The position numbers and the translations under genes were made by a program. DNA of 64,000 nt from Glaucostegus cemiculus (lineage: Eukaryota): contig CDPCPM010000408.1 in assembly GCA_976551045.1 (NCBI GenBank), positions 2,480,001 through 2,544,000 on the forward strand, written 5' to 3'. This document shows, one piece after another, positions 28,715 through 56,031 of the stretch (its first letter is position 1; every line of letters starts with the position of its first letter). A model generated the notes under the pieces. It made no database searches. It was not told where the DNA came from and saw nothing but the letters and a program-made list of their open reading frames with translations.

Positions 28715-29030
28715 AAATACAAAATGCTGGAAATCTCAGCAAGTATGAAGAGGAGGAGTTAACATTTAAAGGTTGGTAACCTTTTATAAGAACTAGGCAA
28801 AATTAGAAAACAAGCATATTTTAAATTGCAGAAGAGGGGGAAGGAGTGGAGAGAACAAAGGGAGTGCGTGGGGCTGGGTGAAGACCAACAGAGAATAAAT
28901 GATGCCAATGGTGGTGCTTGCTGGCTGAGAGGAGATGGTGAAGGCTTGTCACCTACAGATGCTCTGCCTGGAGAAGGCGTAGGTAGGATGAGGTTAGAGC
29001 AGGGAACAAAACTGCTGGAAATGTGAAGTA
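28715..29030 (-). mobile_element. Decayed Penelope 3' terminus
   Basis: AAATGCTGGAAATCTCAGC...GAGTTAACATTTAAAGGTTGGTAACCTTTTATAAGAACT followed by a purine-rich tract (the reverse of a pyrimidine-rich 3' region). Confidence 0.5.
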
Positions 29031-32000: not shown

Positions 32001-34285
32001 AGTACCACGACACTGAGTGAAACACCAACCGATGATCTTGCCCTACTTAACCACAATGCACCGCAGCAGATCTTTAGAGAGCAGCCAGCTTTCAAACAGT
32101 TCATTATTCACTTGTGTTGAGAAGTGGAAGAGCCAGAACCCTGGAAGCATTACAAATGGCCAAGGGAGCAATATGCATCCAGGAACAGAATGCCAATTAG
32201 CCCATTAAGGTATCTTCCAAATTGAAAGATGATTTTATCCAGGACATGCATCGTCAGTAGCGCATTAAAGTCTTGTAGGGATATCCTTTATCATTCAGCA
32301 GCTCCAGAGACACCTACATTATTTAACATACTTGAAAGGAATGCCAAGTCACAGCAAGTTGATCTATTCTGAACCTCGGCCTCTGTGACACATAGCAGCA
32401 GACGATTGGGCGAAACCAGCCATTCAGAGGATGTGTGTGGAATAGTGAATCTTAAAGTGACTCCACAAACATTTTCAAAGGAATTAATTGCAATTTGTTC
32501 TGCAACCGAATGCATTCACCAGAATGTAAATCTTCAGAAGACTGGAGAAAAATAAGACACTGCTCTTGAGACTCAGTTGTAAACAATCTGTTTTGTAAGT
32601 GTGTGGGCACTAGAATCCTGAGGCAAATGGAAGCAAGGGCAAAAGTAATGATGTTGCAAGAGTACCTTTTGTTTTACAAACTTGAAAAGAAATGGGCATC
32701 AGTCTGCAATATGACCTGCATAATCAGTGTGGTCAGATGAGCAGGGACAATTGCCCAGCTGGAATACACGAGCTACCATATAGATACTTCAGCTGAAACC
32801 TCAAAAAGATAGAATGAGACCATTTTGTTGGTGGTGGGACCAAATAATACATTACTATATTGCAGAAAGACAATTCGTTCCTTAACACAAGTCCCCCTGC
32901 AATTTCCATCTTGTCCGGTAATCATTTAAGTGCCAGGAGTGTGAAATTCAAATAGCCATTTCAGCTATGTTGCAGAGAGCCACAACCCTCAGGAGAACAA
33001 GACACAGCTGTGCTGCAAATGTAGTAGTGGATCTATAAAATCAAAGTGATTTAAGGGTAATTAATCAGGACAGACCCTCTTTGAATCTGGTGAGGGACAA
33101 AAGGAAATGCAAAATTGTTTCCAAACCTCCCCAGTTTTGAAATAAACAGTATTAGATTGAAAAGTACACCGTTTCATAATTCTTTCCTCTTGTTCAAATC
33201 ATGATCCTTCAAATTAGTGAGTGTGTGTCTTGCCAAATTAGATACATGGCACTTCTGGGCTCCAAGGAAATTTGTTAATTCGAGTGGCTTTTGGATTAGT
33301 ATGGGGTCATTACCAGCTGAGGCCCATGTCAACCAATGGTACTCCCTGGTGTAAAAATTCTTCAACGTGGTGACTCAGGACAGTCTGCACTCTCCAAGAA
33401 CAATGGAATCATCCGACATTATTTCCCAATTTTAATATGTGAAGTCTCCCAAAGGAAAAGATGGACTTGGGGAGGAGATATTTGAAGGAGACCAGTCTGA
33501 AGATCAATGACAAATTGTTCTTTATCATGCTTTACAATGCAAGTTGGGTGATTTACCCAAGAGAATACAATTAAATATGGGGGGTCAGCAACACTACAGT
33601 CAGGATGAAAATGATGGGTCAGTTCAAGATCTAAGCACTGTACACTGCCTGGTTTGCCATAACCTGTGGATAGCTCTTGACTAATTGCTGTATTTCCCCA
33701 TTAGCATTATCTCTGCTATGTATTCAGATCAGGCACAACCTCGAATATAAAAAATAAGTAGAGCAATTAGTTGCCCTTCCATTGTTCACCCATAGTATTA
33801 ATACTGCAAAAGAGTCTTAATCTTTGAATTCCCAGCCAGAAAAATAAACTACCCTTCAATTACAAACATGATATGAATATGAAGAAATTACTCATTTGGG
33901 TTCATACCACTTTGAGAAACTGGTCTGTAAAATTCACTGCTGTTTTTAAAGTTCTGCTGCTTCCTCACCCGAACATTAAATCTCGTGCCACTATCCTAAT
34001 CATCGTGGGATGCTGCAATCAGCCCTATCTGATGGGCTGACTGAGATGGTAAAAAAAATACATTGTATTTTCTTTGGTTGAACATTTCGGCAACACACAA
34101 ACATACATACAATTTGCTTCAGATAGCTGCAAGATCAAATCAGGTTCACAGAAAAACTGTTGTGGCTGGAAGAGTTTACTAAAGAACCAGCAGTGTGATT
34201 TGGTCACATGGAGGCAACTGGCTTCTGTAGATTGCCCTTCCATGCTGATTCTCTCTCTGACTCGAGTATGTAGCTAAGCGTTCTT

Positions 34286-34440
34286 GGGGGGGGGGGGGGG
34301 GGGCGGCGGAGAGTGATGAAAGCGTGGGGAGAACAGAATGGGTTAGTGTTAGATTGCTGTTAAATTGGGTGTTTGGTGGTTTGCATTGACTCAGTGGGCT
34401 ACAGGGCCTTTTTACGCGCCTTATCTCTATGACTCTAAAT
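34286..34440 (+). repeat. Poly-G tract followed by a V-SINE 3' half
   Basis: About 18 G, then GTGGGGAGAACAGAATGGG...GTGGGCTACAGGGCCT...CTCTATGACTCTA. Confidence 0.55.
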
Positions 34441-34709
34441 TAGCACACAGACTAAGAGGAGACAGAATTGGTCCACAGTCTATGCACACCTTAAGATAAT
34501 GGCCATATAAATGTACTCACTTCATTCAATATTCACGCTGATTTCTGTCGTAATCATCCTAAATCACTGCTAAATTTCAATTATAATTCTACTGATTGTA
34601 GATAATCCAGGGATCAAAAATAAATGGAAAATGAAAACAAAGGTCACATTAGCTGTTGTGTCGAGGCACCCTCATGATATACTCCTTGTCCCACAGAAGG
34701 CTGCAGTTT

Positions 34710-35250
34710 TAACAAATAGGAGTAGGCCACTCAGCAAGATCAAAGCTGATCTTATAACTCAGACACACTTTCCTGAGTCCCTTGTTTTCCCCTAATATCC
34801 ACAAGTCTGCCTGAATATACTCAGTGATTGGACATCCACAGCCCTCTTGCAGACAGAATTCTAAGGATTCACTAGGCTTTGGTCGAAAAATTTCTTCCAA
34901 GCTGTGCTGAAGATCCGAGTCCTTATTTTGATTCTGTGACCCCCCCCCCCATCTCTTTGCAGTCATAGGAAAACAACTCCACATTTACCAAGTCAAGCCT
35001 GGCAAGACTTTTATATGTTTCAATGAAATCACCTCTCAGTCTTCAGCTCTAGAAGGGTATAAACTCAGTCTGCTTAATCTCTCGTACAAGCCTGCCATCC
35101 CAGGAAGCAATCTGATAAGCCTTTGATGTAGAGGTAGGGAAACCAGACCTGTACACAATATTCAAATGTGGCCTTCACTAGAGCCCTATTTAATTGGAGC
35201 AAGACAGATCCATTCTACTCAAATCATTTTGCAATAAAGGTTAACATATT
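34710..35250 (-). mobile_element. Old CR1, 3' piece (split by a Rex insertion)
   Basis: Reverse tail AATAGGAGTAGGCCA; CAATGAAATCACCTCTC (RGD.IE); ACACAATATTCAAATGTGG (PHLEYC). Confidence 0.65.
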
Positions 35251-36145
35251 GGTTATTGGCTTATTATTGTCACATGTACCAAGATACAGAGAAAAACTTT
35301 TGTTTTGCAATGCCATCAAGACATATCATGCCATGCACAAATACACTGAGGTAGTAAAAAGGAACAGAACGAAGAATATAACGTTGCAGTTACAGAGAAA
35401 ATGCTGTGCAGGTAGACAAATATAGTGCAACGGCCACAATGAGATAGATACTGAAATCAAGAGCATCTCTGAGCGCATGAGAGGTCCATTCAAGAGTCTG
35501 ATAACAGTGGGATAGAAGCTCTCCTCGAGTCTGGTGGTTTGTGCTCTCAGACTTTTGTGTCTTGTGATGGGAGGGGGGGACTGGTCAGTGGAGAAGAAAG
35601 GATGACCAGGGTGGGTAGGGTCCTTGATTATGTTGGCTGGTTTCCTGAGGCAGCGGAAAGTGTAGACGGAATCAGTTGGAGGGGAGGTTGGTTTGCATGA
35701 TGGACTGGACTGCACTCGACTCGCTGCAGTTTGTTTTTGCAATCTTGGGCACAGCAGTTGCCATACAAAACTGTGATGCATCCAGATAGGATGCTTTCTA
35801 TGGTGCATCTATAAAAATTGGCGAGTCAGCAGGGATTTGCTGAATTTCTTTAGTCTTCTGAGGAAGTAGAGGCGTTGGTGTGCTTTTTTGGCTGTAGCAT
35901 CTGTGGCTGGACCAGGATAAATTGTTGGTGATATTTATACCTAGGAACTTGAAGCTCTCAACCATATCCTCCACCTCAACACCATTGATACAGACTCCAC
36001 CCTTCTTCCTGAAGTCAATGGCCAGCTCCTTCATTTTGTTTACATTGAGCGAAAGTTTGTTGTCTTGACATCATGCCATTAGACTCTCTACCTCCTTCCT
36101 GTACTCCGTCTCCTCATTGTTTGAGATCGGTCCATGACAGCGGTG
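35251..36145 (-). mobile_element. Rex1/Babar LINE with 7-bp target-site duplication
   Basis: KELAIDFRK...VESFKFLG, IESILSGCITVLYG, IIKDPTHPGH, RLEESFYPTVIRLLN; ACATATT at both 35244-35250 and 36146-36152. Confidence 0.88.
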
Positions 36146-36700
36146 ACATATTATTTTCCTTCCTAATTACTTGGTGTAACTGTGTGTTAAAGTTCAGTGT
36201 TTTGTAAACAAGGACACCCAGGTCTCCCTGAACATCAAGACCTTTCAATATCTCACCAGTTAAAGAAGTACAGACTATTTTTTTCCTATCAAAGTGGATA
36301 TCCTCACACTTTTTCACATTGTGCTCCATCTCCCATGTCCTTGTTTATGATTTAACCTGTCCACACCATCACAAGCTTTGATTCATCAGAAAACTTGCAT
36401 CTATTACATTAGATCTCCTAAATCATTCATATTGATTGTGAACAGCTGGGGTTCAGCATTGGTCTCTGCAGCACCCCACTAATTGTAGCATCCAAAACAG
36501 GAAAGGACACTTTTTTTTAAACCTGCCAATCCATCTTCAATGCACACAAGTATATTACTCACAATACCAAGCAGTTAAATATTGTTTAATAATCTCATGT
36601 GGCACCTTATTGAAGACCTTTTGATAGCTTAAGTACACCAGAAGGACAACACCCATTTACTACACCCAATCCTCCATCCTCTGGGCCTTTTGGAACAAAA
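36146..36700 (-). mobile_element. Old CR1, 5' piece
   Basis: MEHNVKKCEDIHF...QGDLGVLV; TGTGGCACCTTATTGAAG (FNKVPH). Confidence 0.65.
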
Positions 36701-39529
36701 CTGCCCTATGTCATCTGCTTTCTCCAAACACCTTTCATTCACAGGAAATACAGATTTTTGGCAACCCCACCCCATTATCAAATTAACCTGTGAACTTTGC
36801 CTGTGGTTACTGTTCCACGAGATTAGCAACTGCCTTTTTCAGCAGCCATTTCCTTGTATTTAAATAATTTATCGTTCTTCTTACTGAGGGTTTAAATATT
36901 AAAAGTTTTCAAAAGGAAATATAGAAAATTTTCTCTAGGGTGGGAAAAGAATGGGGATAAAGCTTTAAAGTGTGTTTGAAGGCAGATAAAACAGCATTCT
37001 TCCTCTGGTAGTTTGTAAGTAAGGAGACAACTGGATGTACAAATATAGGAGTTAGGAATTTGGACCCTGAAGCCTTTTCCACTGCTGATCTAACTCTAAC
37101 CCCAGCTCTGCATTCCCAGCTTTCCCTTGTAATCTTTCAACTCCCTTGCTTATCAGGAACTTATCTATTTCTATCTTAAATTTTTAGGTTTTTTTTAAGA
37201 AAGATATCAGGAATATGGTGGCATACTGTGAAAAAAGTCATTCAGATTAGAACCAGGAGCACCACCTTACAATCACAATTCAGTTACCCTCCCATATCTA
37301 ACTGATACCCAATTAGGTATAATCAGACAAGATAATAAAAAAAATTCCTCTCTGCACATTAATCTGCATATCTTTCATCTGATTAAAGTCCTTCAGTATA
37401 AATCTATTTCCTGAAGGTGTAGATAAAGAAAACGCATCAACAATCTTTATTGAACTCTACATATAAAGCATCTGTTTCCTTCAAATCAATCTACTGCTTG
37501 CTCAGTTGAACTCAAAACTTTCAAAAAACAAATGGGGCCACTTACTTCAAGCTGCAAAACAAAACAAACAATTTCTAATGAGAGATGGTGGCAGCTTGAA
37601 ATTCATACGTGACATTTATAATACAGGAGTAAATACGCCTGAGTCTTCTGACTTTGTTCACTGGAAGAACAAATGATAAAAGATAACCAAGATGACTCCA
37701 AAGGCTCCACTGACAAATTAAGTGAACAGAGTTTGTGCAGATGGAGCTTGGTATAAAAAAATGAGAGATTATCCAAGAAAGATAAATCAGAATAATTTCT
37801 TCATGGTGAGATATTGTGAGCAGTAAATGAGAAAAGAGATGTAGACTTTCATTAAAAGGCATAACATTGTTGGTCTATATTCACGTGAATGTAAGCAGCA
37901 AACCTAACAAGGGCAGATATTCTCTGGAGAATTGTATGTTGTTTTTGCCACCAACTGTGAAAGAAAATGTAATGATCATGTAGGGTGTGAAGTTCACATT
38001 CACCGGAATGATTATGGGGTCTGGTCATATAAATCTGGCTTGTATTGAAAAGTGAGCCTTCCATTCAATTTTGGTGTTTAAGATGATAAAAGAAATTGAT
38101 ATATTTATTCAGAGAGACAACTTTCTCTGGTGCAGGAGAGCAAAGCGTTAAGGATGAGGGGCCAGATCAGCTGCAAGCAGCCCACTGCCCGGACTTGGGT
38201 CACCCATCCACTTGTACCATTCCTGAACATACGAGGCAGAAAAGAAATGACCACCTGTACCTAAATATCAGCCCGCAAGGCTCTGGGTGGCAAATGGGCC
38301 TCGCGTGATGTGCACTGAGATTGTTCCACTGGTGTTCCTGTAACCTTTGACAACTCACTGCTGACAAAGGCTTTAGAACAGAAACTCAATCTATTCCAAC
38401 AGGCTTGCATAACATAAAATTTAAGGAATTCATTTAATGTAAATAAAAGATTGACATCCCACAAATCCCACAATCCTAAGACACTGATGACAGCAGACAA
38501 GGTCAATTAATTGATTATTTCTTATTTATTGGTTCATTAAGAAAAATGATAAAGGCTTAATAGGGGTGTCCTTCAAATATCTTAACTGTCATAAAGCCCC
38601 ATTGGAAACATAATATTTGATATCACACAATTTTAGAAATCTGTTTCAAAATGATTTGCATATTCACTGTAGCTTTTTATAACTGATTCTGCCAGCCTGC
38701 CACTGAACAGACATGCCTCCCTATCACGTGTTAACTATTAAAAGTTTTCCCACCCAATTATCATAACTGCAACTCTAACCTTCCACGTATGCAAAAGTCA
38801 ATCAGCATAATCAGTAAACAAATGGCTTTACCGAACAATGAAGATATAAAAGAATTAACTGTGGGGCAAGAGCCAGGGGAAATTACCCTCTGTCCTTTAT
38901 CAATTTTTTTGTTGTGATTTCCTGAACGATTCTCAGACGAAGGTAATCCAATGACTGGGGTGAAGTTCTTTTGTGAGATATTTCTTTAAACAAAAAGCAC
39001 TTAACATAGAACAGGGCTCAACACGGAACAATACCTTCAGGAAATGTCAAGCATTTGTACTAGCACAAAACCACCAACCACTTTTAATAACCAACGCGGA
39101 AACCAACACAGATTCTCACTACACTGGGTAACTCTGTACCCTTTAAAATAAAGGCTCTAACTGCATTCTAATTGTCTGCTCAGTATTTAGCCCATATTGC
39201 ATTGCTAGCTAGACACCTCCTATGCCAGATCATTGTCATTATCACCTTTTGAAGCAGAGGAAAGGTCACAGAATGTCAAACACCCCCTGCTGCCTAAATT
39301 TTGCTTTACCTAGAGAAAAAAATAACTGACAAGCTGGACAACTGAGGGTTTTATTTCTATAGATCTCCTACAACTTCTAGTCAAGTCTTAACAACAAAGT
39401 GCATGTATTCAGGACTTCTTCTGTGGTACACCATCTCAAGGTACTTCACGGGACCAACAAAAAATTCCAAATGAACAGTTTGCACTGTCTTCATTAACAG
39501 TGGACAATTTTGCAATCCAGGGTAAAATA

Positions 39530-39760
39530 TTTCATTTCAATTCCCGATCCCATACCACACTGTTCATCCTTGACCTTCTCCACTGCCAGAGGCCCAATGG
39601 AAACCAGAGAACCACCTCATATTCTGCCTGAGTAGTCAACAACCAAAAGGTATGAGCACTAAGTTTTCCAATTTCAGATAACCCTTAATTCCTGTGTCCC
39701 CCACCCCCTTTCTCCTTCCAATCCTACTCCAGTCCCATACTCCATTTCCCATCCCCCATT
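39530..39760 (+). mobile_element. Penelope-like element, GIY-YIG C-terminus
   Basis: HFNSRSH...ILDLLHCQ...HLIFCLSSQQPKGMSTKFSNFR* resembles the PLE terminus HFN..H...LxxxEQHLIFRLGSLQPxGMN. Confidence 0.7.
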
Positions 39761-39761
39761 T

Positions 39762-40338
39762 TCATCGGGAGGTATTGCTTCAGTTGTACAGGTCCCTGGT
39801 CAGACCCCACCTGGAGTATTGTGTTCAGTTCTGGTTGCCTCACCACAGAAGGATGTGGATGCTATCGAGAGGGTGCAGAGGAGGTTTACGAGCATGCTGC
39901 CTGGAATGAGGAGCATGCCTTATGAGAGCAGGTTGCAGGAACTCGGCCTTTTCTCCTTGGAGAGAAGGAGGATGAGGGGGTACCTGATTGAGGTGTATAA
40001 GATGATGAGAGGTATTGATAGGGTAGATAGTCAGAGGCTTTTCCCCAGGGCTGAAATGGTGGCCACAAGAGGATATAGGTTTAAGGTGCTGGGGGGGAAG
40101 ATATAGGGAAGATGTTAGGGGTAAGTTTTTTACTCAGAGTGGTGAGTGCGTGGAATAGGCTGCAGGAAATGGTGGTGGAGGCAGATACGATAGGGTCTTT
40201 CAAGAGACTGTTGGAAAGGAACATGGAGGTAAATAAGATAGAAGGCTATGGGTAAGCCTAATAGTGTGGGGACATGTTCGGTACAGCTTTGTGGGCTGAA
40301 GGGCCTGAATTGTGCTGTAGGTATCTATGTTCTATGTT
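39762..40338 (+). mobile_element. CR1 3' end inserted into the Penelope element
   Basis: [23 protein letters not shown]...GIDRVDSQRLFPRA; tail CTATGTTCTATGTT. Confidence 0.92.
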
Positions 40339-40795
40339 CCATCCTGGTTCCATCCACGTTCTACCCTCACATTTCACGCCCTGAAACCCTCCTCCATCTA
40401 GTTCCATTTGCTCTTCGCTTCTTTACTTATCAGATAGCCTTTGTGTTCTTGCCTTTCACACTCTCCTCCCCCAGATGTCTCTACCTTCATCCTCCCTTCC
40501 CCCTATCTGGCTCCATCTGCCTTTTTTCTTTGTTTTCACCTACCATCAACCTGCCTCAGTCTCCCAACTCCACTCCTCCCCAACCCCATCTCCTCCCTCC
40601 TCCCCCCCCCCCCCCAAATCATCCTTCACCCATTCTCGGTCCCTGTCTCACCCCTCCACCTCTCCTCTTTACACTGGCCGTCTTTCCTCTTCACTCTCAA
40701 TCCTGGTGCAGGGTCTTGACCCAAAACACCAACAATTCCTTTCCATCCACAGATGCTGCTCAACCTATCGAGTTCCTCCAGCAGATTGTTGTAAA
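40339..40795 (+). mobile_element. Penelope 3' region (pyrimidine-rich) and terminal repeat with a decayed hammerhead-like motif
   Basis: C/T-rich tract, then TCCTGGTGCAGGGTCTTGACCCAAAACACC...CCACAGATGCTGCTCAACCTATCGAGTTCCTCCAGCAGATT. Confidence 0.65.
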
Positions 40796-40949
40796 ATATG
40801 TCCGAACCTCCTGAAAAGAGCAAGAGAGGAAACAGCTTAGGCTCAATCCTTTTGTAATGACCTGAGGCTGCAGGCATGGTGTTGGTGAACTGCAAGTCCA
40901 CCAATGTGGAGCAAGTGAAAACCTGAGTGGTTACAGTCAGCCTAACAGA

Positions 40950-41050
40950 TTAAGATAAGACAAGATCTCTTTATTAGTCACATGTACATCGAAACACACA
41001 GTGAAATGCATCTTTTGCATGGAGTGTTCGGGGGGGCAGCGCGCAACATA
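40950..41050 (-). mobile_element. Short non-autonomous element (same family as 28093-28230)
   Basis: AAGATAAGACAAGATCTCTTTATTAGTCACATGTACATCGAAACACACAGTGAAATGCATC. Confidence 0.65.
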
Positions 41051-41094
41051 ACAGCATAAATCAGCATTTAAAGGAAGAAAGGTTAATGAAGGAG

Positions 41095-41745
41095 TGAGTG
41101 GGAACTTGTTAAGGCAAGTCAAATCCAACTATCAAATGAACTTTTTGAGGAGATCATATTGAGGGTTGATACAGGTCTGCATGGACTTCAGCAAGCTAAC
41201 TGATAAAAATGCCACATGGCAGATTGACCAAGAATGTAGATGTCTGAGGGACACGAGCAAATGTGACAAGATAACTCAGTAGAAGAAAGCAAATGATAAC
41301 GGCTAGCAGGAATGTTCTGACTGCAAAGCTATGTGCTGTGGCAGTCTGCAGTATTTTGGACCAGGTTCTTTACTTTATGTTCAATATATGGATGATGACT
41401 TGGACTTATAAACAAGTGCCATGATTAAAAAGTTTTCTGATGATACCAAAACTGTTCAGTGTGATTGATACAGAGGAAGAAAGTTCTAGACTGTAGAAAA
41501 TATCAATGCACTGATTAGGCGAGCACAGGAGTGGAAAATGGAATTCAATCTGATGTACTGCATATGGGGTGAGCAAACAAGCAAGTGAACATACAGTTAG
41601 GATATTGATCAGTGTGGAGGAACAGCAGGACCTTGGAGTGCATATTCACAGATCTCTAAAGATAGCAGGACAGGTAAATTAGGTGGTTAAGAGGCTATTA
41701 TGTTTTTTTATTTGCTTTTATTATCCAAGGCAGAATGAAAAAGAG
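41095..41745 (+). mobile_element. Old CR1 RT fragment
   Basis: MDFSK..DK.PHGRL, KFSDDTK, WKMEFN, VEEQQDLGVHIH. Confidence 0.65.
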
Positions 41746-42039
41746 CACTCATTCTCCATGGGGTGGGGTTTGGATGCGTGATACTCAAGGTTCTAGACCT
41801 CAGCTTTGATGGGGTTGCATATCTAAATTGGTGAGTTACAGTATATTAGGTGTTGTTAGTTCTGTCGAGGGGAAACAGCAAATTACAAAAGCTCCATTGA
41901 CAAACTGAGTTTCCGCAGACGGAGCTTGATTTAAGAAATTGAGGAGGTTATCCAAGAAAGACATTTACCGCAGGGTGAGATATTATTAGCAGTAGGTTTC
42001 CACTAAAACAAATGCACAGGATTGACGGCCTTTGCTCAA

Positions 42040-42370
42040 GGACTGAAACTAAAAATAAGGAAGTGCCTTAAGCAGACCCTCTCTGGAGAACTACATGCAG
42101 TTTCAGCCACCAACTGTAAAGGGAGATATAATGGCTTGTAGGGTGTGGAGCACACGTTCACCAGAATGATACAGAGCTCTAGTTGTATAAATTTGCCTTG
42201 TATACAACCCAGGGCTCGGTATCATTCTAGTGAACGTGTGCTCCTCACCCTACAAGTCATTATATCTCTAAGTAATCCCTTCAATTTAAGGGTTTAAAAT
42301 AACAGAATTGATAGGGTAGATTCAGACTATTTTCTCTGGTGGAGGAAAGCAAAGGCAAAGGACATGGGGC
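42040..42370 (+). mobile_element. Old CR1 fragment containing an inverted duplication
   Basis: CAGACCCTCTCTGGAGAACTAC (RP.LE.), GATATAATGGC...TTCACCAGAATGATAC (DIMA..FTRMI), GATAGGGTAGAT (DRVD). Confidence 0.55.
42123..42268. repeat. Inverted repeat, ~67 bp arms with an 11 nt loop
   Basis: 42123-42189 versus the reverse complement of 42201-42268: about 6 substitutions and 1 gap by eye. Confidence 0.9.
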
Positions 42371-42442
42371 CAAATCAGGTTGCACCCAGCCCATTGGCTG
42401 AATGCCACATATCCACTCTATCTTTTTTTAGACACAAAAAGC

Positions 42443-42484
42443 TAAACAAACTGACTTCCTTCATAAACAAACTGACTTCCTTCA
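42443..42484. repeat. Exact 21-bp tandem duplication
   Basis: TAAACAAACTGACTTCCTTCA occurs twice. Confidence 0.9.
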
Positions 42485-43027
42485 TTTCAGAAGCAGCCCA
42501 CACTGTGGAGCAGCTTCCAAGTAGCCAAAAGGTCTTGCACGATGTGGCATGAAGGTTGCATCACCACTGTGTCCTGGCAGTCTTTCATGGCTTGCCCTTG
42601 ACAAAGGCTTTTGGTGTCTGATAAAAACTTATTCAAAAGGTTAAATTATTTAAAATTTAAAGAATTAAAAATGAACTTAATTTAAAATATTTTAACATAT
42701 TAGCAATAAGTAATAAAATGAAAATAAAGTGGAATGAACAACTCATTTACACTCAATTACCTTTTCCCTACAAGGTCAGCAGCCCCATTTTTATATTAGC
42801 CATCTCTATGTAAATGTAGGGGGCTTCCAGACTCTCTCGCCAGAATTTGAGTATTCTTTATCCGAGACCAGTGCTGTGGTCAGCAGCAGAGAGAGGTGTG
42901 ATGTGCTGGTATCTGGACTTAAGGTAATATGGATGATTGTATTAGGCCAAGAGCAGACAAATTCTTGATGCACTGAGGCCTGAACGGTGACAGACAGCAG
43001 ATCCCCAAGGATACATCTGTTGCAAGT

Positions 43028-43232
43028 CAGGCAGCATCCGTGGAGAAAAGCAGTGCGGTCAACGTTTCAGATCAGGACCCTTCTTCAGGACTAATGCAGT
43101 CCCGAAGAAGGGTCCTGACCCGAAATGTTGACCGTCTGCTTTTCTCCATGGATGCTGCCTGGCCTGCTCAGTTCCCCCAGCATCATTGTGTCTTTCCATC
43201 TAGATTCCAGCATCTGCAGTCCTTTGTTTCTC
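43028..43232. mobile_element. Palindromic Penelope-terminus element (best preserved copy)
   Basis: Arms 43028-43092 and 43098-43161 around the loop AATGC, followed by ...GTTCCCCCAGCATC...TAGATTCCAGCATCTGCAG. Confidence 0.8.
43057..43092 (-). ncRNA. Candidate minimal type I hammerhead ribozyme
   Basis: AGUC-CUGAAGA-A-GGGU(CCUG)AUCU-GAAAC-GUU|GACC: core, stem II, palindromic ACGU stem III and a GUC/GAC stem I. Confidence 0.55.
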
Positions 43233-43984
43233 ATCTGTTGCGAGTCACTCGATTCAATCCAGTATCTTAAAGACAGAGCAAGACTGCTCCGGATAAAATC
43301 GGAACATATTTTCTCACACAAAAGGATGATGAAATTTGGAACACTCCTACACAAGTGCAAAGTGGACTTCATACAAACTGCGTACAAGGTGTGTTTATCT
43401 GCAAACCTCAAACTAACCCATTGTGTAGTCATCATAGTGCAAAGTTTGCAAGTCATAACTTAGCTATAAAAAATGAACTCACAAGGCAGGCACTATTTAT
43501 ACTTTGCAGAAACTGTTAATACATCACTTACTCCAGCAAGGTGGTCCAGGTCAACTGAGTTCAGTTCAGTGACACAAAGGGGAGAAGTAATTTACAAAAG
43601 GTTGGGAAGTACAGATCACCAGGTTCTGCTCGAAGTATTAATTAGTTCCACATTATTCTACTGAGAACTAGGAGACTGCTAAAGACCAGTCTTGCTGTGA
43701 CAAATATTTTGCTGCATTTTGTTCTGTTTAAATGCCAGAAGGGAATGTGAAATTTGAGCTCCAATTCCTGATAACTCATTAGTGGAAGTAGGTCCTTAAA
43801 ACTCTGCATCTCATCATGGATTATTAAAAAACCAAAGCACAGTAATAAGATGCCGAGCAGAACAGCAGCAGTCACCACTTCCTATCCCAAAAGAGTTGTC
43901 TTAAGAATCCTCCAGGCAAGATTAACGGATTGAAATTGTGAACAAACCATTCATCATTCTACGCACCTTTGCTTAATCTTAGTG

Positions 43985-44150
43985 CTAGCTCAGAGTCAGC
44001 ATTCTTGTCTCAGTGTCAGAAAATTAAGATTCAAACCCCATTCCAGAGATTCGTGCACATGACTGACACTTCAGATAAAGTACAACCAAGTTGTTCTCAT
44101 GCTGAGCCACCTGTATTCCAATAACATTAGCTGCAGCTCAGTCAACAGCA
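43985..44150 (+). mobile_element. Decayed tRNA-head (Deu-like) SINE
   Basis: TAGCTCAG...GATTCAAACCCCATTCCAGAGA...CTGACACTTCAG. Confidence 0.4.
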
Positions 44151-44619
44151 CATAGTCCAGATAAGGAGAAATCAAATCACACTCCAGAGAGCACAAATTT
44201 TGGGGCTATACACTAATGCAGTGCCACAAATTTCAGAGAGCACTCCTGTAAACTGATTGGCTTCTTTCAGAGGGCAGTTAAAAGTCAAATGCATTGAGGG
44301 TCCCAGTCTGAATAAGCAAGGATGCCAGATTTCCTAAAGGCCATTAGTGAAATAGAGAGATGTTTACACAACAATTAATTACGTTCATGGTCACAGTCAA
44401 GATTCTTAATTCCAGATTTAATTTAAATTCCACTGTTTCCAAGGTGGGATTTCAACATATCCAGAATAATAAAATATAATCCTCTGGATACTAGTCCAGT
44501 AGTTTAGCCACCAAATGACCACATCAATCATTTGCTTCAACCTCTCCACTGTTTTTGACTTGTCTTGTTTACCTGATTCCCATTAATGGATGGCAGTAAT
44601 TACCTAAAACTACATACTA

Positions 44620-45400
44620 GGAAGACCATTGTTAGTCCTCACTGCCATAGCCATCACAACCCCTCCCATGGCTGTTAAGCTTGTATCAGACTCTCTACAT
44701 TTATTGTCACAGTTGACAAAGAGACTAGCTCCAAGCACATATCCACACCGCCAATGAAACTGCTCAACCTTTTCTCCAGTGCAGCTCCCCTACTGTTGAG
44801 ACCCTTGTCCAGGCCTGAAGTGCTTCTTGAGTGTTTCTCAAGTCACACTCATTAAAACTAGTGGAGAATATCTCATACTGACTGGAAAGGATTTGAGATT
44901 TCAGGAGTTTAGTTACTCATCATAGTATACCAGCCTCTGCTCTTTTGGCCACAATATTTACGTAGTTGGTCCAGCTGAGATTCTAATCAGTGGTAATTCC
45001 CAGGATGTTGATGGTGGGGGACTCAGCAAAGTTGATGCCACTAAACATCAAGGCTGGAAGGTTAGGGTCCCCCTTGCTGGAATTGGTCAGTGTCTCATAT
45101 ATTCATAGTACAAATGTTATTTCTTACCCATCAGCCCTTGCCTGAATGTTGTCTTGGTTTTGCATCACAGGCACGAACTACTTCATTTGCTAAGGAACTG
45201 AATGGAAGTAAATATTGCACAAGCAGCAAGGCTCCCCACTTCTGACCTTACGATGGAATAAAGTTATTCCAGCATCAGCAGAATCTCTTGTTGCCTCCGT
45301 GATAGAATAACATTGTTGATTAGGCAACCGTAAATGCTTGGGCCACAACTCCCAAAAATATAAAATACTGGGGCAGTAGGTAAATAACCCTTATTTTTTA
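44620..45400 (-). mobile_element. Old CR1-group element (same family as 15895-16740)
   Basis: CAGGATGTTGATGGTGGGGGACTCAG is the reverse of ESPTINILG; GCCTGAATGTTGTC is the reverse of DNIQA. Confidence 0.5.
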
Positions 45401-45644
45401 TTGTTATCCTCTGATACCGCACTCATATTTAGCACACTATCAACCATGTACATACAATGTAAATAAAACAGGAAATTTCAAGAAAAATAGTATGCCTTAA
45501 ATGGCAGCTGAAAAGCAACGCAGGGGAGTGGTGAAGGATTTAATTCTTCTGGTTGCCTGTTAGAGAGTGTTTGTTCTTCACCCTTCATACTTCCAATTAC
45601 CATCTTAATTTGTTGTAAAATCAGAAAATTATAGAACGACATAG

Positions 45645-45990
45645 GAGATCAGGCAGCATCTAGAGTTAGTGGTTTCAGGTCAATGATCTTTTATCAAACT
45701 TGAATAAGTTAGAGATAAACAAATCTTAGAAAGCAAAGACAAGAAAACAGAAGTGAAAAATCTGGGACAAGGTGGAACGCAGAATGGATTACATGACCAA
45801 AATATGACTGGGCATGGCAAAAGAGGGTCATACATGAATGAGAACCTAAAACTAGATCTGAGATGACACAAGTCACATAACAGTTCATTCTCTGAAATTA
45901 TGGTATGGTGCTGTTTCCAGAAAGCTGGAATGAGCTGATGTTCCAATGAAGATGAATACAACGTTCCATGTTCAAGGAGCACAAACCTCA
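45645..45990 (-). mobile_element. Decayed Penelope 3' terminus
   Basis: TCAGGCAGCATC...GTTTCAGGTCAATGATCTTTTATCA plus a purine-rich tract. Confidence 0.5.
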
Positions 45991-46024
45991 TCCTTTAACC
46001 AAGCAGATTACAACCTCTGGCTTT

Positions 46025-46412
46025 AATACGGTAAATCTCTGATGATCCAGCACACTTGGGACTTTGGTAGTGCTGGACCAGCAGATTTTCCAGACCATTG
46101 GATATTACTCCCATTAATACACTTCTCTTTTCTTTTTTTTGTTAAATATATTGCACAGTGGTATACTAAATTTTCAAGTGAACCCAGCAAGTTTAAAGGG
46201 AGCCTCAGATCCAATAACTCCAGACACTGGCTCCGGCTACATGCAGAACCCCCACTGTGGACCCTAACCATGGCTGCACTCCTGATCTCTTGCTCTGGCC
46301 ATGCACCCTGACTCCATTCTGGACCCTAGTTCACATTTGGACTAATAAGTGAGCCAGATGCCAAACCATCAGGATTTCCAAACAACTGGACACTGGATTG
46401 GAGTATTTTATA
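46025..46412. mobile_element. Possible Tigger/pogo-like MITE
   Basis: Left end TACGGTAAATCTCTGATGATCCAGCA and right end CTGGATTGGAGTATTTTA resemble a decayed TA-CAGTAAAA...ATCCGG terminal inverted repeat. Confidence 0.3.
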
Positions 46413-46579
46413 CCAAGTTCAATGACCAGATAGTGATTCTACTACTCATTATACCTCCACCACATCTCTCTTCTTTACATGTCCCATTACCACCCTCTTT
46501 TGCGTTGCCCCACCATCCTTCCCATCCTAGCATTAATCTCTCCTGCATTCCACAGTGCCATGGTTCCCTTTTGTTGCTT

Positions 46580-46925
46580 GGAGACACAAGAGACTGCAGA
46601 TGCTGAAAGCTGAAGCAACAATCTACTGAAGGAACTCAATAGGTCGAGCAGCATCTGTGGGGAAGGGAGCTGTCAGTCCTGATGTAGGGTTTTGACCTAA
46701 AACATCGCCAGCAGATTGCTGCTCCCTTTGTTGCTTTCTCCCCACTCCCCCCTATTTTCTCTGCACCTGAATTTGTTACACTTCAAATTTGTTCTTGTTA
46801 TAATTATAGGTTATCGACCTGAAACTTTATTTTATAAATGTAGTACATCTCCACAGACATTGCACAACTTGAGTACTTGCAGCAGTTTTGGCTTTTACTT
46901 CAGATTTCTGGCATCAGCAACATTT
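46580..46925. mobile_element. Composite Penelope-terminus repeats
   Basis: ACTGCAGATGCTG...GGTCGAGCAGCATCTGTGG, AGTCCTGATGTAGGGTTTTGACCTAAAAC, GGTTATCGACCTGAAAC...CTCCACAGA. Confidence 0.55.
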
Positions 46926-48839
46926 ATTTTAATATTAAATTGTGACATACTTTTCACCCACACCGCTAATGTGGCACATCCCATTGTAACAATACCCCAC
47001 TAACTCCAAAGATAAGTGGCAATACACACCCTTGCAGAGTGAACAATTGGACCATCTTGGTTTACACTCAACGCTAACATCAAACTTTGGACAGCATGAA
47101 CCAAACTGAAAGCAGTCTCTCACGTAAAGCGTACAATGAGTATGATCCAACTCATACATTAAATCACCTACTCCCACCTGCTGATGATTCACAAGGGCCA
47201 ATTCCAATCAGAAATCCACACAATGACTCGCTATGCTAACCAGATATGCCAGTGCACTTGGAGCCAAGATCACACAATGAACAGGATGATTCTCAACACT
47301 TCCAGATGACTCATTTTATCACCCGCTGTGTGATCCAAATAAGGGACTGTTTACACTGATGTCAGGTGACAAACAATCAGCATGTTCACAGTTTTAATAA
47401 ATGCAAGATACAGTGATGAGATAAATGTAGAGGATGCAACTAGTTCACAATTAAATCCAACTCACTAAATTTGCAATTAGCACAATAAGAAAGTCATATC
47501 ATGACAGGTTAAGAATTCCATTTCACAACTTCATACTTCACATCCTAGAAAACCACAGACTCTTGCACACAGTCCCTATAATCTCTACTGCCACTCACAT
47601 GCAGAAATAATATGTTTCCTTAGCACTCACAAGTGGGAGTACCACATGTCCCAGTGCATGACCCTCACACTAGCTCCAGAACCCCTGCCCACATAATGGT
47701 GTTCTTCAGTCTGAACCTGCCCCTTGCCCGCAGATACACCAGGTGCATGGTAACCATCCGTCGACTGTATTGCATATGTCAAGGCAAGCAAAAAGAGAAG
47801 CAGAAAACTTCATCTCCTTTGTATGACCAAGAATTTAAAGAAAAAATGCATGACTTTTGTGATCCTCCAATAGCAACATGAGGAAGCTCCTGCATTAATT
47901 GGAACATAGTGCCACAGGAAATTTTCAGAAGGACCAATATCTGAATGTTCAGAAGGACATTCTCTGCATGAGGAATTTTAAAAAGTAGAACTTACAACAG
48001 AAAACAAAAAATCTTCAATAAGTCTCAAAGATGAGTCTTGTACTCACTCCTTGTGTGAAAAACAGTGTCTAGTAAATTACTGAAGTAACAGCTGAGATTT
48101 ACTATCACCATAATTGGGTGTAGCACAATGTTTTTAAACACTTCAGCCTATTACAATCAAGCTGAAACCTGTGTATACCATTTACAGTCCAGTGCAATAG
48201 ATTAATGTCGACAATTCCTTCCCCCCCACCCCCCCTGCAGATGCTGCTCAACACGCTGAATTCCTCCAGCAGATTATTCGCTGCAATGGATTTAACTGTA
48301 TTTTACATCCCTGCTGTTGCCCAGATGAGCCTGAAAGCCTCTGGGTTCTTGTAGAAATCCAACTAATTACAGCCAAGTTAAAGGAGCTCAGAATGAAGGA
48401 TCAGACTTATAATCAAGAAATCGTTTCACTGAACTAAAATATACGGTGGGCACAAGAATGACATTCATCACCTTGTACAGTAGAATGTCACATGCATTCA
48501 TTCAGAAAGTGTAGCTGTCAAAGGCCCAGGATTGCATCTACTCCATAGTCTCTCAGGAATTCAAAGATGAAACTCAAAGTAAGCTTTCATGAAAAGTATG
48601 AAAACAGCTCTGATTCAAGTAAGATTGCAGTTTCTGAAATGACTAGAGGTGATAAACAACAATATTGAACAACTGGAAAGATTTAAGACAGTATTTAGAA
48701 TACAAGAGAAATGTATTCCACAAAAAGAACATATTAAACACTAAAGGGAATTATGTCTTCACTTATCCATGAATTGAGGATCAGAAAAGACATGTGCATG
48801 AAGTACATAGTTCCGAGCTGCATGGTAAAAAGAGAATAC

Positions 48840-49065
48840 CAAGAACACAAGTAAACAGGAGTAGGCCACCTGGTCCCTCAAGACTGCCTTGCCATTCAAT
48901 ATGATTATGGCTGATCTGGACTGGTCTCAACTCCTTTTCTGTGTCGGTTCCCCATATCCCTCAATTCCTGTATCTTTCAAGTATTTATCTCCACCTCGAG
49001 TATACCCTATGATCTGGACTCCACCACCCTTGGGGGCAGAGAATTCCAGAGATTCACTACACTTT
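48840..49065 (-). mobile_element. CR1 3' UTR fragment
   Basis: CAGGAGTAGGCCA...CCATTCAATATGATTATGGCTGATC...GGCAGAGAATTCCAGAGATTCACTAC. Confidence 0.7.
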
Positions 49066-49099
49066 ATCCGCCAAGGGATTATGAGAGAAATAAATAAAT

Positions 49100-50356
49100 A
49101 AATAGCTAGGCAAAGGGGAAGTATGGAATTAAATTATCAGGGAACATAAATAGTGAAGTATTTCACAAATGTTAATTAAAAGCAAGGATGGGATGGCAAT
49201 AAGGCAATTAAGACATAGACAGAAGAATGCTGTGGGCAATGTTAGGGAATTAGCAGAAATATTAAATTGCTAATTTTGCTTCATACTTTCAAGGGGGAAT
49301 AAAACAGGTGGATGCAACATATGTTGAGAGGAGTGCTTTTATAATAGAAAAATGAGTAGTAAATAATCAAACTCGTACCATAAAGCCCTGGTTCAAGTGG
49401 ATTTTAAAAGAATGAAGGAAAGGGATAGTAGAGACATTACTACACATATTTAATAATTTGTTACAGAAAGCCATTGTGCCAGAGGACTAGCAGATAGCCA
49501 ATGCAATACCTGTATTAAGGGGAATAGCATATGCCTAAGGAATTACAGTCAGTTTAACACTCATAAAAGCAAAAATAATGGAACCATCCTCTAAGGAGAG
49601 GATAGAGGCACATCTAGAAGCATGAAAATGAAGCATCTTGACCAAACTTTTGAATATTTTAAGGTGGTAGCAGAGCATATAGAAATATTGAATTAGATGC
49701 AATTTATTTAAATTTTCTAAAGTCCTCCAATAAGGTTTCCCCATAATAGTTTAATAAGGCCTGAGAATGCAGAGTCTCATTCCAACTAGCAGAATGGATT
49801 GCTAGATCACTTCTGGGCAGAAAGCAGAAATGAAGGGTAGCTCTTCACAATACTAGGTAATGGTGCTTCAGAGCCATCATCACTGGGACCATCATGGTTT
49901 ACAATGCAAATTCATAACTAGAATCTGGAACCAAAAGTAGACCTACTAAATTTGTAGTTGAGACCAAATTTGGGATGGGAGCAAGCAGACTAGTCAATAC
50001 TGAGGAATAAAATTAGACAGAAGGACATTAAACCACAGAAGAGGCAAACAAATGTCAAATTAATTCAATGCAAATAAATAATTAGGAAAAAAAGAGTGGT
50101 GTGGGATCATTTAGTGCCCGGTAAAGTTCTACATCCAAAAGATCTTGAAGTACTACAAGATGTATCGCAGGTTAGCAAGCTCATTAAAAGAAAATAATCA
50201 GACAAAACTGGAGCTATTTCTAGAGGGACAAAATGGAAAAGTAGGGAGGTTATGTTAAACTTGCATAGAATCTTTGTCAGACTATAGAGTAGTGTGCACG
50301 ATTCTGGACAGTATACTATTGAAAGGATGTAGAGATGAAGAATGAAATAGGAGGGT
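49100..50356 (+). mobile_element. Very old CR1 ORF2 (resumes at ~51620-51970)
   Basis: Decayed FAS.F, VPED*.IAN, GNY..VSLT, KF..ETK and SREVML.L motifs. Confidence 0.55.
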
Positions 50357-51615
50357 ATGCATATCAGGAAATTCTTTGAGGAAGTAACAGGCAGGATAGA
50401 CAAGCGAGAGTCAGCGGATATTGTTTACTTGGATTTTCAGAAGGCCTTTAACAAGATGCCATACATGAGGCTGCTAAACAAGATAGGAGCCAATGGCATT
50501 ACAGGAACGGTCCTAGCATGGATAGAAGATTGGCTGACTGGCAGAAGGCAAAGAATAGGAATAAAGGGGGCCTTTTCCGGCTGGCTGCTGGTGACTATGG
50601 TGTTTTGCAGGGGTCAATGTTTGATCTGCTACTTTTCATGTTCTCTGTTAATGATCTGGATGACAGAATTGATGGCTTTGTGGCCAAGTTTGCAGATGAT
50701 ACAAAGATAGGTGGAGGGGCAGGTGAGGTTGAGGAAGCAAGGAGTCTGCAGAAGAACTTGGAGAGGTTGGGAGAATGGGCAAAGAAATGGCAGATGGAAT
50801 ACAGCGTAGGGAAGTGTATGATCATGCACTTTAGTAGAAGGAATTAGGGCATAGACTATTTTCTAAATGGGGAGCGAAATCAGAAATTGGAGGTGCAAAG
50901 GGATTTGAGAACCCTGGTGCAGAATTCCCTGAAGGTTAACTTGTAGGTTGAGACAGTAAGGAAGGAAGGCAAATGCAATGTTAGCATTCATTTTGAGAGG
51001 ACCAGAATATAAAAGCAAGGATGTAATGCAGAGGCTTTATAAGACATTGGTCAGACCACATTTGGAGTACTCAGAGCAGTTTTGCACCCCATATCTAAGG
51101 ATGGATGTGCTGGCATTGGAGAGGGTCTAGAGGAGGTTTATGAGAACGATCCCAGGAATGAGAGGGTTAACGTACAAGGAGCGTTAGATGGCTCTGGGCC
51201 TGTACTCGCTGGAGCTTATTAGAATGAGGGTGGACTCTCATTGAAACCTACCAAATATTGAAAGGCCTGGACAGAGTAGACGTGGAGAGCATGTTTCCAG
51301 TAGTGGGAGAGTCTAGGACCAGAGGGCACAGCCTCAGAATAGAAGGACGTCCCTTTAGAACAGAGATGAGGAGGAATTTCTTTAGCCAGAGGGTGGTGAA
51401 TCTGTGGAATTCACTACGACAGATGGCTGTGGAGGCCAAGTCATTGGGTATACTTAAAGCAGAGGTTGATAGGTTCTTGATTAGGAAGGGTGTCAAAGGT
51501 TACAGGGAGAAGGCAGGAAGATGAGGTTGAGAGGGAAAATTAAATCACCCATGAACGAAAAGCAGAACAGATTCAATGGGCTGAATGGCCTGATTCTACT
51601 CATACGTCTTATGCA
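50357..51615 (+). mobile_element. CR1 RT and 3' end nested in the older CR1
   Basis: FFEEVT..ID...DIVYLDFQKAF, KFADDTK, ESRTRGHSL, FFSQRVVNLWNSL; tail GGGCTGAATGGCCT...CGTCTTATG. Confidence 0.92.
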
Positions 51616-52169
51616 AAGGACGAACGTACCAGGCTCTTTGAAATAATGAAAGATTTTGATAAAAGAGAACATTTCCACTTGTGCAGAAGAATGTAACTTG
51701 GGGCAGTCAATTTAAGGTGATTGCACAGAAATCCAGCAGTGAATTCAGAAGACCCTTCATTACCGAAGCATGTTGAGAATATGGAACCCAGTCCCAAAGG
51801 AAGGGGTTGAAGCAAATAGTACAAACAAATTTAAGAGAAAGGTGAACGAACCATAAGGAAGAGGGTGAAGCTAATAGGTGTAGTTGAGTAAAAACAGGGG
51901 GGACATCAGAACGCAGCACGGGCTGGCGGGGCCACGCAACCCATTTCTGTCCCATACTTCCTGCGTAATCCAATGAACCTGCTAAGCAGCTCCAAATTAT
52001 AACTAGCTTCCTGGTAAAATCAGTCATCATCCCACTTAAGCTCAAAGTAATCCCCTGCGTGAGAACTATACTGCCTGGATAACAAAGCGAGATTTATCTT
52101 TGGGAGAAGTAGACTGCTGATCAGAAATTTTTCAAAATGCCCTAAGCATTCAGACAGTGCTACATCTAC

Positions 52170-54885
52170 AATCCATCCTGTTGGTGATTTCATGTACACT
52201 AGTTTGGCAGGGGGATGGGAATCCGAGTGATAGGTTAGGGGCTGGTGCATTTAGTGTACAAGTAGATGCTCAGAGTGTAGAAAGACTGTGAGGAAGGATA
52301 GGCAGCTGAAAGGGCAAAATTGCAGTCAGTTGGATGGGCTGAAGTGTGTCTACTTTAATGTGAGAAGTATCAGGAACAAGGGTGATGAACTGAGAGCATG
52401 GGTAAGTATATGAAACTACGACGTTGTGGCCATTACAGAGACTTGGCTGTTACAAGGGCAGGAATAGCTGCTGAATATTCTGGGGTTTAGATGTTTCAAA
52501 GGGGACAGGGATGGAGGTAAAAGAGATGGGGCAGTGGCTTTGCTGATCAGGGAGAGTGTCACAGCTGCAGAAAGGGAAAGTGTCCAGGAGGGCTCATCTT
52601 TGGAGTCAGTGTGGATAGAAGTCAGAAACAGGAAGAGAGCAATCACTCTACTGGGAATATTCTACAGGACAAGAGGTGCAGAAATAAGAGGGTTGTCGTC
52701 ATGGGAGATTTCAACTTCCCTAATATTGATTGGCACCTCCTTAGTGTAAAGGGGATAAATGGGATAGAGTTTGTTTGGTATGTCCAGCAGGGATTCCTGA
52801 CACAGTATATGGACAGGCCAACAAGAGGAGAGGCCATACTGGACCTGGTACTAGGCAATGAGCCTTATCAGGTTTCAGATCTCTCGGTGGGACAGCATTT
52901 TGGAGACAGTGACCGTAACTCCTTATCTTTACCATAGCCTTAGAGAGGGATAGGAGCAGACTATATGGGAAAGTATTTAACTGGGAGGGGGGAAATTATG
53001 ATGCTATTAGGCAGGAACTTGGGCGCGTAAATTGGAAAGACATGTTCTTGGGGAAGTTCGCAATGGAAATGTGGAGGTTATTTCGGGAGTACTTGCATGG
53101 GGTTCTGGATAGGTTTGTCCCATTGAGGCAGGGTAAGGATGGTAGAGTGAAGGAACCGTGATTGACAAGAGACATAAGATATCTTGTCAAGAGTAAGAAA
53201 GAAGCTTACCTAAGGTTCAGAAAGCAAGGATCAGACAGGACTCTGGAGAGTTACAAGGTAGCCAGGAGAGAGCTTAAGAATCGGACTGAGGAGAGCGAGA
53301 AGAGGGCATGAGAAGGCCTTGGCAAGTAGGATTAAGGAAAACTCCAAGGCATTCTATATATATGTGAAGAATAGGAAGATGACTGGAGTGAGAGTAGGAC
53401 CGATCAGGAATACAAGAGGAAACATGCCTGGAGTAGGAAGAGGTAGGGCAGGTCCTTAATGAATACTTTGCTTCAGTATTCACCAGTGAGAGACCTTGAC
53501 GTTTGTGAAAATGGCGTACAACAGGCTGATAAGCTAGAGCATGTTGACGTGAAGAAAGAGGATGTGCTAGAACTTTTGAAAAACATTAGGATAGATAAGT
53601 CATCGGGGTCGGATGGGATATATCCAAGGTTATTATGGGAAGCAAGAGAAGAGATTGCTGCACCTTTGGCGATGATCTTTGCATTCTCACTGGCCACAGG
53701 AGTAGTGCCAGATGATTGGAGGGTGGCAAATTTTGTTCCCTTGTTCAAGAAAGGGAATAGGTATAAGCCTGGTAATTACAGACCAGTGAGTCTTACTTCA
53801 GTGTTGGGCAAATTACTGGAGAAGATTTTAGAGACAGGATTTATGAACATTTGTAGATGCATAGGCTAATTAGGGACAGTCAGCATGGCTTTGTGAGGGG
53901 CAGGCCGTGCCTCATGAGCTTGAATGAATTTTCTGAGGATGTGACAAAGCACATTGATGAAGGTCGAGCAGTGGATGTGGTGTACATGTGGTGTAAGGCG
54001 TTTAGGCTCATTCAGAAAATCTGGAGGCATGGGATCCAGGGAAACTTGGCTGTGTAGATTGAGAATTGGCTCGCCCATAGAAGACAGAGGGTAGATGTAG
54101 ATGGAGAGTTTTCTGCCTGAATGTCGGTAACCAGTGGTGTTCCGTAGGGATCTGTTCTGGGACGCCTGCTCTTTGTGATTTTTATAAATAACAGATGAGG
54201 ATGTGGAGGGATGGTTTTACTAAGTTTGCAGCTGACACTAAGGTTGGTGGTGGTATGGATAGTGTAGAAGGTTGCTGTAGGTTACAACAGTACACTGATA
54301 ACAGTAGTATTGATAGTAGTAGTATTGATAGTCAGGGTATTGAGTTCAAGAGCCGCAAGGTGATGTTGCAGCTCTATAGAACTCTGGTTAGACCACACTT
54401 GGAGTATTGTGTTCAGTTCTGGTTGCCTCATTATCAGAAGGATGTGGAAGCTTTAGAGAAGGTGCGGAGAAGATTTACCGGGATGTTGCTTGAATTGGGG
54501 AGCATGTCTTATAAGGATAGATTGAGTGAGCAAGGTCTTTTCTCTTTGGAGAGGGGGATGAGAGCTGACTTGACAGAGGTGTACAAGATGATAAGAGGCA
54601 TAGATCGAGTGGACAGTCAGAGACTTTTTCCCAGGGCGACAATGCCTAACATGAGCAGGTTTAATTTTAAGGTGATTGGAGGAAGGTATTGGGGTGAGGG
54701 GAAGGGGGGAAAGAGAGAAAGGATGTCAGGGGCAAGGTGGTGGGTGCATGGAACACACTGCCAGCAGAGATGATGGCGATGTTTACATTCAGGATGTTTA
54801 AGAGACTCTTAGGCTCATGAATGATACAAAAATGAAGGGTGTGGGCTGAAGGGCCTGTACTGTGCTGTTTTGTTCTATGTTCTTA
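52170..54885 (+). mobile_element. Near full-length CR1 ORF2 (endonuclease and RT), decayed, with an internal deletion
   Basis: [65 protein letters not shown]; tail TTCTATGTTCT. Confidence 0.93.
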
Positions 54886-55174
54886 ACCATGGATCACTAG
54901 ACTAAGTTTTCTAATCAGTTGTGGGAGAGTCACTGAACTGTTCATTCCCTCTCAATAGTGAGAATAGCACCCTGAAGACCATGGGATCTTCACGAGAGCA
55001 CAAAACCACTGTCAGTGCATTTGTGAAGTTGGAAAATAAAAATGGACTGGAGAAGGGACTCTTAAAAAGGTGATAAAATACAAGCGGGATGGAACGTTAC
55101 CTGAATGTTCTCACAAAACCATGTTCAAGAATAGACAATGGAAAATAAATCACATAATTCATCCTAGTAACTTT

Positions 55175-55978: not shown

Positions 55979-56031
55979 TAAATTCACCTTGCATTTGGAC
56001 AGCAGGTTTTCACTTGGAATAAGATGCCTAC

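Follow-up and report, generated by a model that had tools for sequence, protein, structure and literature searches.

For insertions of EN+ Penelope-like elements (PLEs), the published footprint consists of an inverted pLTR, a tail and a target site duplication (TSD) (PMC3846280; PMC8557442). In Pen2a_Av (PMC3846280), and in the scheme given in PMC8557442, the inverted pLTR lies head-to-head, a tail of 30–40 bp is found at one end and the TSD is short. Metazoan PLEs also carry minimal type I hammerhead ribozymes (PMC4209133), in which the core is combined with an extra nucleotide after A9, a loop-less palindromic 15.2-16.2 and a short stem I. Pairs of such motifs on opposite strands, ∼100–700 bp apart, are noted in the same paper, which also reports no detectable cleavage of the minimal motifs as monomers and low activity as dimers. 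Activity of a minimal hammerhead has further been described as needing the protein of the element (PMC11167929). Both how PLEs build their inverted pLTRs and what the hammerheads do in vivo are treated as open in PMC8557442 and PMC11167929.

The locus described here lies in a 64-kb stretch of DNA from Glaucostegus cemiculus, hereafter the window, and its layout of inverted pLTR, tail and TSD is known already from the EN+ PLE insertions. Unlike these, the window copy is stump-sized and contains no ORF, its inverted arm extends to +62 and not to ∼+100, and both arms stop exactly at +1 (element positions are counted from +1, the A that precedes the strand of stem I). The locus is probably one old insertion, since decayed, in which two ends of a common Neptune-type PLE stand head-to-head; it likely formed on uncleaved RNA through priming by both target ends, with run-off at the likely RNA start, +1. 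The features are as follows:

43030..43232, no strand: whole insertion, 203 bp, consisting of inverted short pLTR arm, spacer and full tailed pLTR arm (from TSD bounds and family copies)
43015..43029, plus strand: left TSD copy, 15 bp, or 16 with one shared base (repeat match)
43233..43247, plus strand: right TSD copy (repeat match)
43030..43092, minus strand: inverted arm, element +1..+62, TPRN-sense (arm alignment and family copies)
43093..43097, no strand: head-to-head junction spacer, 5 nt (specific to the window copy; junctions vary among copies)
43098..43232, plus strand: direct arm, element +1..+134 including a tail of ∼30 nt (family copies)
43058..43091, minus strand: minimal hammerhead relic, TPRN-sense, core intact and stem II weakened (motif and folding)
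43099..43132, plus strand: minimal hammerhead relic, TPRN-antisense, with U4C at 43103 and C15.2U at 43126 (motif and folding)
1437..56016, minus strand: TPRN intron 1, ∼54.6 kb, boundaries approximate (exon mapping)

The inverted arms pair in two stretches, 43056-43092 with 43098-43134 (89% identity) and 43022-43053 with 43136-43167 (91%), on either side of the 5-nt spacer, which bears out the palindrome around a 5-nt loop proposed in the initial annotation. For the minus strand a fold of -124.5 kcal/mol is predicted (z=-17); none of 200 shuffles was as stable. The extent proposed for the unit, 43028..43161, has to be corrected to 43030-43232, since the right arm continues to 43232 and the TSD brackets the unit; the two TSD copies, 43014-43029 and 43232-43247 with the shared base included, are identical at 15 of 16 positions. 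The 3′ end of the left copy resembles element positions ∼+63..+70 and may have provided a microhomology for priming. The inverted arm of the window is shorter than the usual tail-less arm of the family, which ends at +96..+106. Two other classes were considered and rejected. A non-LTR retrozyme consists of head-to-tail tandem units with a hammerhead each, whereas the window arms lie head-to-head in a single TSD-flanked unit, and as a miRNA precursor the locus reached a best Rfam score of 32.8 bits with 92 required.

The exons of the taperin gene (TPRN) were mapped to the minus strand, exon 1 at 56017-58.7k and exon 2 at ∼1234-1437, placing the insertion in intron 1 with the minus strand as TPRN sense, as initially annotated. 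The taperin of the window is 69–71% identical to its five best matches, which all come from rays or skates. Three RNA runs were available that look like a related species, judged by fixed differences in TPRN exon 1 and zero depth on unique intron bins beside the element; their stranded reads over exon 1 agree with minus-strand transcription.

Several further elements were seen in the window. At 6602-6773 lies another palindromic insertion from the window copy's family, which has lost most of both hammerheads at its junction. Older ends of sister PLE families, some of them palindromic, lie in or near TPRN at 7621-7705, 40747-40791, 46581-46930, 59978-60102, 60720-60930 and 61086-61104. A separate 58-bp inverted repeat at 42123-42268 (91%, 30-nt spacer) has no match to the PLE arm and is possibly a MITE remnant. 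Other retroelement fragments are found at 21691-22458, 54192-54773, 62902-63951 and 9749-10222; two of them were scanned and both match RVT_1. By their motifs, all four are probably of CR1/L2 type.

Searching the genome with the arm gave at least 3,963 candidate places, and an exact 24-nt motif located 3′ of the ribozyme occurs in at least 10,525 copies, with 0 for the control. In longer copies the arm is preceded by coding sequence and a 3′ UTR; the encoded parts are RT, a CX4CxxC linker and a GIY-YIG domain that has two inner cysteines, and the decayed frames directly upstream of the arm correspond to a single ORF that encodes RT and, at its C terminus, GIY-YIG. Pfam gave no matches on the two decayed ORF fragments submitted (the 476-aa L183 frame and an L030 fragment), while homologues of L183 (39–70% identity) carry PF00078 (RVT_1) and some of them PF01541 (GIY-YIG). 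One copy, L262, shows a partial tandem in complete form, pLTR-ORF-pLTR, with the arm forming both pLTRs. From this tandem and the coding context we conclude that the arm represents the pLTR end of a PLE of Neptune/Nematis type, so the initial assignment to a Penelope terminus holds. A CX2-5CxxC linker between RT and EN together with two cysteines in GIY-YIG defines Neptune/Nematis in PMC8557442, and the CX4CxxC linker and both GIY-YIG cysteines are visible in the L183, L193 and L196 frames. We prefer Neptune over Nematis because a 2026 preprint, which includes one chondrichthyan, gives in its available text only Neptune and Poseidon among the PLEs of vertebrates.

The 3′ ends of the arm are bimodal. 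The 93 arms used follow genome order and come from 90 places within the first 100 of the matches listed; 34 of them end at +96..+106, 52 at +122..+133 and 7 are shorter; the difference between the two main groups is the 30-nt tail. Among 59 copies selected solely on their 3′ part, an inverted piece adjoins 25, reaching +60 or beyond in 16 of these 25, and five of the 59 are short palindromes like the window copy. An optional tail, an inverted 5′-truncated copy and a TSD were all found. In addition, upstream element sequence is inverted at the 5′ end in an L1-like, non-overlapping manner in five copies (L126, L133, L142, L148, L157), and a splice-donor-like motif lies ∼80–90 nt past the tail in both copies running from tail into ORF (L261:4185-4195 and L262:4838-4846), possibly marking a PLE intron.

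Exact matches to the hammerhead core number at least 20,331 in the genome compared with 328 for a reversed control; ∼4,000 in coelacanth and ∼9,000 in Xenopus are given in PMC4209133, where another descriptor was used. In 12 hand-picked copies from several (sister) families, in which the changes come from few lineages, 91.7% of the cells were paired, 8 of the 9 stem pairs showed two-sided change and 0 of 500 shuffles reached the score. Judged by these comparisons, the minimal type I hammerhead recognized in the initial annotation is real as a design of the family. Its decay was followed in 128 arms spanning the motif. C11.1, G12, C15.2 and G16.2, all located in CpGs, were changed in 27–36% of the arms, and G12 is lost through CpG decay in ∼30%. 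The core was intact in 57 of the 128 arms and the core plus all stem bases in 4. Outside CpGs we counted 44 core changes, against 47 expected base for base from all non-core positions and ∼61 expected in a hand count restricted to the hammerhead neighbours; the non-CpG core positions may thus be slightly better kept than their neighbours.

A different hammerhead-bearing sequence was found at G000:C4:8001-17900 (L269), near a contig end. It is a tandem array of 1.1–1.35 kb units that extends to at least C4:35082, each unit containing an intact copy of the minimal hammerhead and, behind it, degenerate telomere-like microsatellites, and lacking an RT-like frame. The array is possibly a retrozyme or a derivative of a telomere-type PLE, and single copies of its motif occur every 60–80 kb along C1:9.8-10.5 Mb.

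In the 64-kb window a relaxed core descriptor, a check suggested initially, gave exactly two matches, one per arm. Rfam, the other check suggested, showed no hammerhead match in the window; it also missed four of four other loci with intact cores and is therefore unusable as a test for the minimal motif. The minus arm contains all the parts initially listed for it: the core (positions 43088-43082), the additional A (43081), GAAA, the ACGU stem III, a 3-bp stem I and a stem II (43080-43077 with 43072-43069) bearing two G·U pairs. The predicted cut site is between 43061 and 43060. The G·U pairs, at 10.1-11.1 and 10.3-11.3, result from two C>T changes (43071, 43069), so that the arm lacks the stable stem II with its G10.1-C11.1 pair; the changes shift the predicted dG of this stem from -4.8 to +0.4 kcal/mol and its predicted pairing probability from 0.94 to 0.03. 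The plus arm has the U4C change already noted, at 43103, and also a C15.2U at 43126 that had escaped the initial annotation. It thereby departs from the invariant core and, with AUGU in stem III, from the palindromic design of that stem. Folding is still predicted for this arm, with a stem III self-duplex reduced to -1.4 kcal/mol from -5.7 kcal/mol, and U4C is said to lower hammerhead activity considerably in vitro (PMC3088659). Compared with the motifs in PMC4209133, the two relics share the core, the extra nucleotide after A9, the loop-less palindromic 15.2-16.2 design and the short stem I, and differ in the length of stem II (only 4 bp) and of stem I (3 bp), in the 5 nt that separate the pair and in the mutations carried by both members. 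Since both arms bear damaging changes, acquired independently after insertion, the claim that each strand encodes one ribozyme was not upheld: neither is likely to be active according to the folding models, which ignore tertiary contacts and protein help.

The 5′ ends of the arms pile up at +1..+5, and both window arms end at +1. Among 81 arms of the window's family that reach +5, 13 end at +1..+5 (1.0 expected, p=3e-11), and so do 14 of 53 in a sister family (1.85 expected, p=3e-9), which has 8,441 motif matches in the genome. The expected numbers are derived from the upstream drop-off rate, with one duplicated pair left in. With the anchor moved to +68, ends at +1..+5 were seen in 7 of 87 and 8 of 54 arms of the two families, respectively, and ends at the cut site (+32..+35) in 2 of 87 and 1 of 54; four loci in this sample had no anchor, and the 87 include the loci of the 59-copy sample. 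A sister-family cluster at +33..+35 (6 of 69) had raised the possibility of cleavage-derived insertions, which we rejected because the cluster adjoined the anchor and was gone with the far anchor. In solo copies with a clear TSD the element end is 0–6 nt away from it; by automatic search the TSD was clear in ∼12 of 54 rows, most short matches (6–8 nt) being due to chance. The ends thus show a sharp hot spot immediately ahead of the core, and the cut site has none, which indicates that the integrated templates were uncleaved.

Upstream of the pile-up, the window's family has a TATA-like box at ∼-31..-24, and +1 fits an initiator consensus. In the sister family an initiator-like motif is present and a consensus TATA is absent. 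TATA and initiator are noted for a rotifer pLTR, and in having TATA and an initiator-like motif the arm resembles the Pen2a_Av-type pLTR (both PMC3846280), while the Penelope of D. virilis has a TATA-less internal promoter (PMC2377424). The bases preceding ends at +1/+2, looked at for an untemplated cap-derived G, were 6 G, 5 A and 3 T. The absence of a consensus TATA in the sister family counts against a start at +1, as do the three RNA runs of a related species, all from one study, in which family reads were abundant but piled up neither at +1 nor at the cut site; these reads are probably dominated by read-through copies. The genomic ends suggest that +1 is the start of the element RNA and that the two window arms are run-off cDNAs of uncleaved RNA. 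Folding predictions differ with the start: an RNA beginning at +1 has the hammerhead fold as its minimum-energy structure, whereas the inclusion of 12 upstream bases locks the core in a hairpin (P about 1, stem I P=0). This hairpin at +1 may act as a built-in off switch, or it may have arisen by chance from the pyrimidine-rich UTR.

The window copy most likely formed as follows. The GIY-YIG endonuclease would make a 15-nt staggered cut at the target, after which one target strand would prime at the usual start site of the family, +134, giving the tailed arm, and the other at ∼+62 through microhomology with the target (TSD) end. Reverse transcription would take place near the 5′ end of uncleaved RNA, at internal start sites as in Poseidon_Ac, and both cDNAs would run off at +1 and be joined with a 5-nt filler. 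Since the cDNAs overlap, two RNAs or the serial use of one would be needed. Later, both arms would have mutated independently. The TSD and the asymmetry of the tail support this explanation, and the bimodal 3′ ends match the two RT start sites in PMC11167929.

The inverted arm could also stem, instead of from priming by the second strand on RNA, from fold-back self-priming or template switching at a hairpin around +1, in which case the pile-up at +1..+5 would reflect the hairpin loop and not an RNA start. Self-priming has been proposed for palindromic PLE junctions (PMC3846280), the window's family has a suitable hairpin of 6–7 bp spanning -4..+11 (∼-5 kcal/mol as DNA), and several family junctions use microhomology of this hairpin. 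The sister family, however, has only ∼-1 kcal/mol at +1 and yet an equal or stronger pile-up, solo copies without an inverted arm also end near +1 beside a TSD, and in the window copy a 5-nt spacer is present and the +1 hairpin is not retained. We consider this explanation improbable. Splicing is a still weaker candidate, and we give it very little credence: a pyrimidine tract and CAG before +3 resemble a 3′ splice site in both families, at which templates might be spliced or cut to give the ends at +1..+3, and in D. virilis Penelope the intron terminates where helix I has its 5′ end (PMC4209133), but the ends at +1..+6 have no shared upstream exon and are adjoined by TSDs, and no joint into +3 was seen among the 15 joints shown (27 more lie beyond those).

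The initial annotation suggested that the opposite arm pairs with a functional sense-strand ribozyme in read-through RNA and that this self-masking could explain why the insertion is tolerated in an intron. The pairing itself is indeed predicted, with the core fully paired and stem II at P=0 in the full palindrome, and the sense arm retains every core base and the ACGU 4-mer. The explanation built on it did not hold up: the sense arm alone is predicted to be unfolded (P=0.03), most family copies have no masking arm, and intact cores occur in 7 of 15 short palindromic arms vs. 50 of 113 others. Masking is also not needed, since minimal hammerheads are reported to be inactive as monomers, with low activity as dimers (PMC4209133), and opposite-strand copies cannot dimerise in cis. 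On this evidence, from a small sample, masking is neither needed nor selected, and a functional ribozyme tolerated in this way is most unlikely. We propose that the hairpin in the TPRN pre-mRNA is a by-product of the insertion and not a selected mask.

Run-off by two target ends has parallels in other systems. In L1 twin priming the second target strand primes internally by microhomology and the two cDNAs do not overlap, unlike those of the window copy. Retroviral strong-stop DNA is likewise a short cDNA running off the 5′ end of an RNA; in contrast to it, the scheme for the window copy implies neither a tRNA primer nor a step by RNase H. A parallel to the reverse transcription that we infer is Poseidon_Ac of Anolis (PMC11167929), with two internal RT start sites bounding the tail, uncleaved RNA as the main template and no reads ending at the cut site. 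Poseidon_Ac belongs to a different clade, the ORF of the window's family having the CX4CxxC linker, and the available text of that paper mentions no hot spot of 5′ ends at the start of the RNA.

At the locus itself the ribozymes are predicted to be crippled and there is no sign of selection, and the locus is an ordinary one among probably hundreds to thousands of such stumps. The end pattern of the family is more useful than the locus and worth following. As a tentative reading, for which the odds are somewhat less than even, the RNA of elasmobranch PLEs starts exactly at the hammerhead, a cDNA resembling retroviral strong-stop DNA is often integrated directly, singly or as a two-template palindrome, and the bases upstream of +1 switch off the ribozyme in read-through RNA. 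Our literature searches, with most subscription papers outside their reach, gave no ‘strong-stop’ in connection with pLTRs and no title on PLE hammerheads of sharks or rays. The end pattern provides exact, testable coordinates for both the RNA start and the upstream anti-ribozyme hairpin. If the reading is true, the masking device would be built into the pLTR and would not come from the palindrome, and the genomic ends, numbering in the thousands, would map where PLE transcripts start and by which route they integrate.
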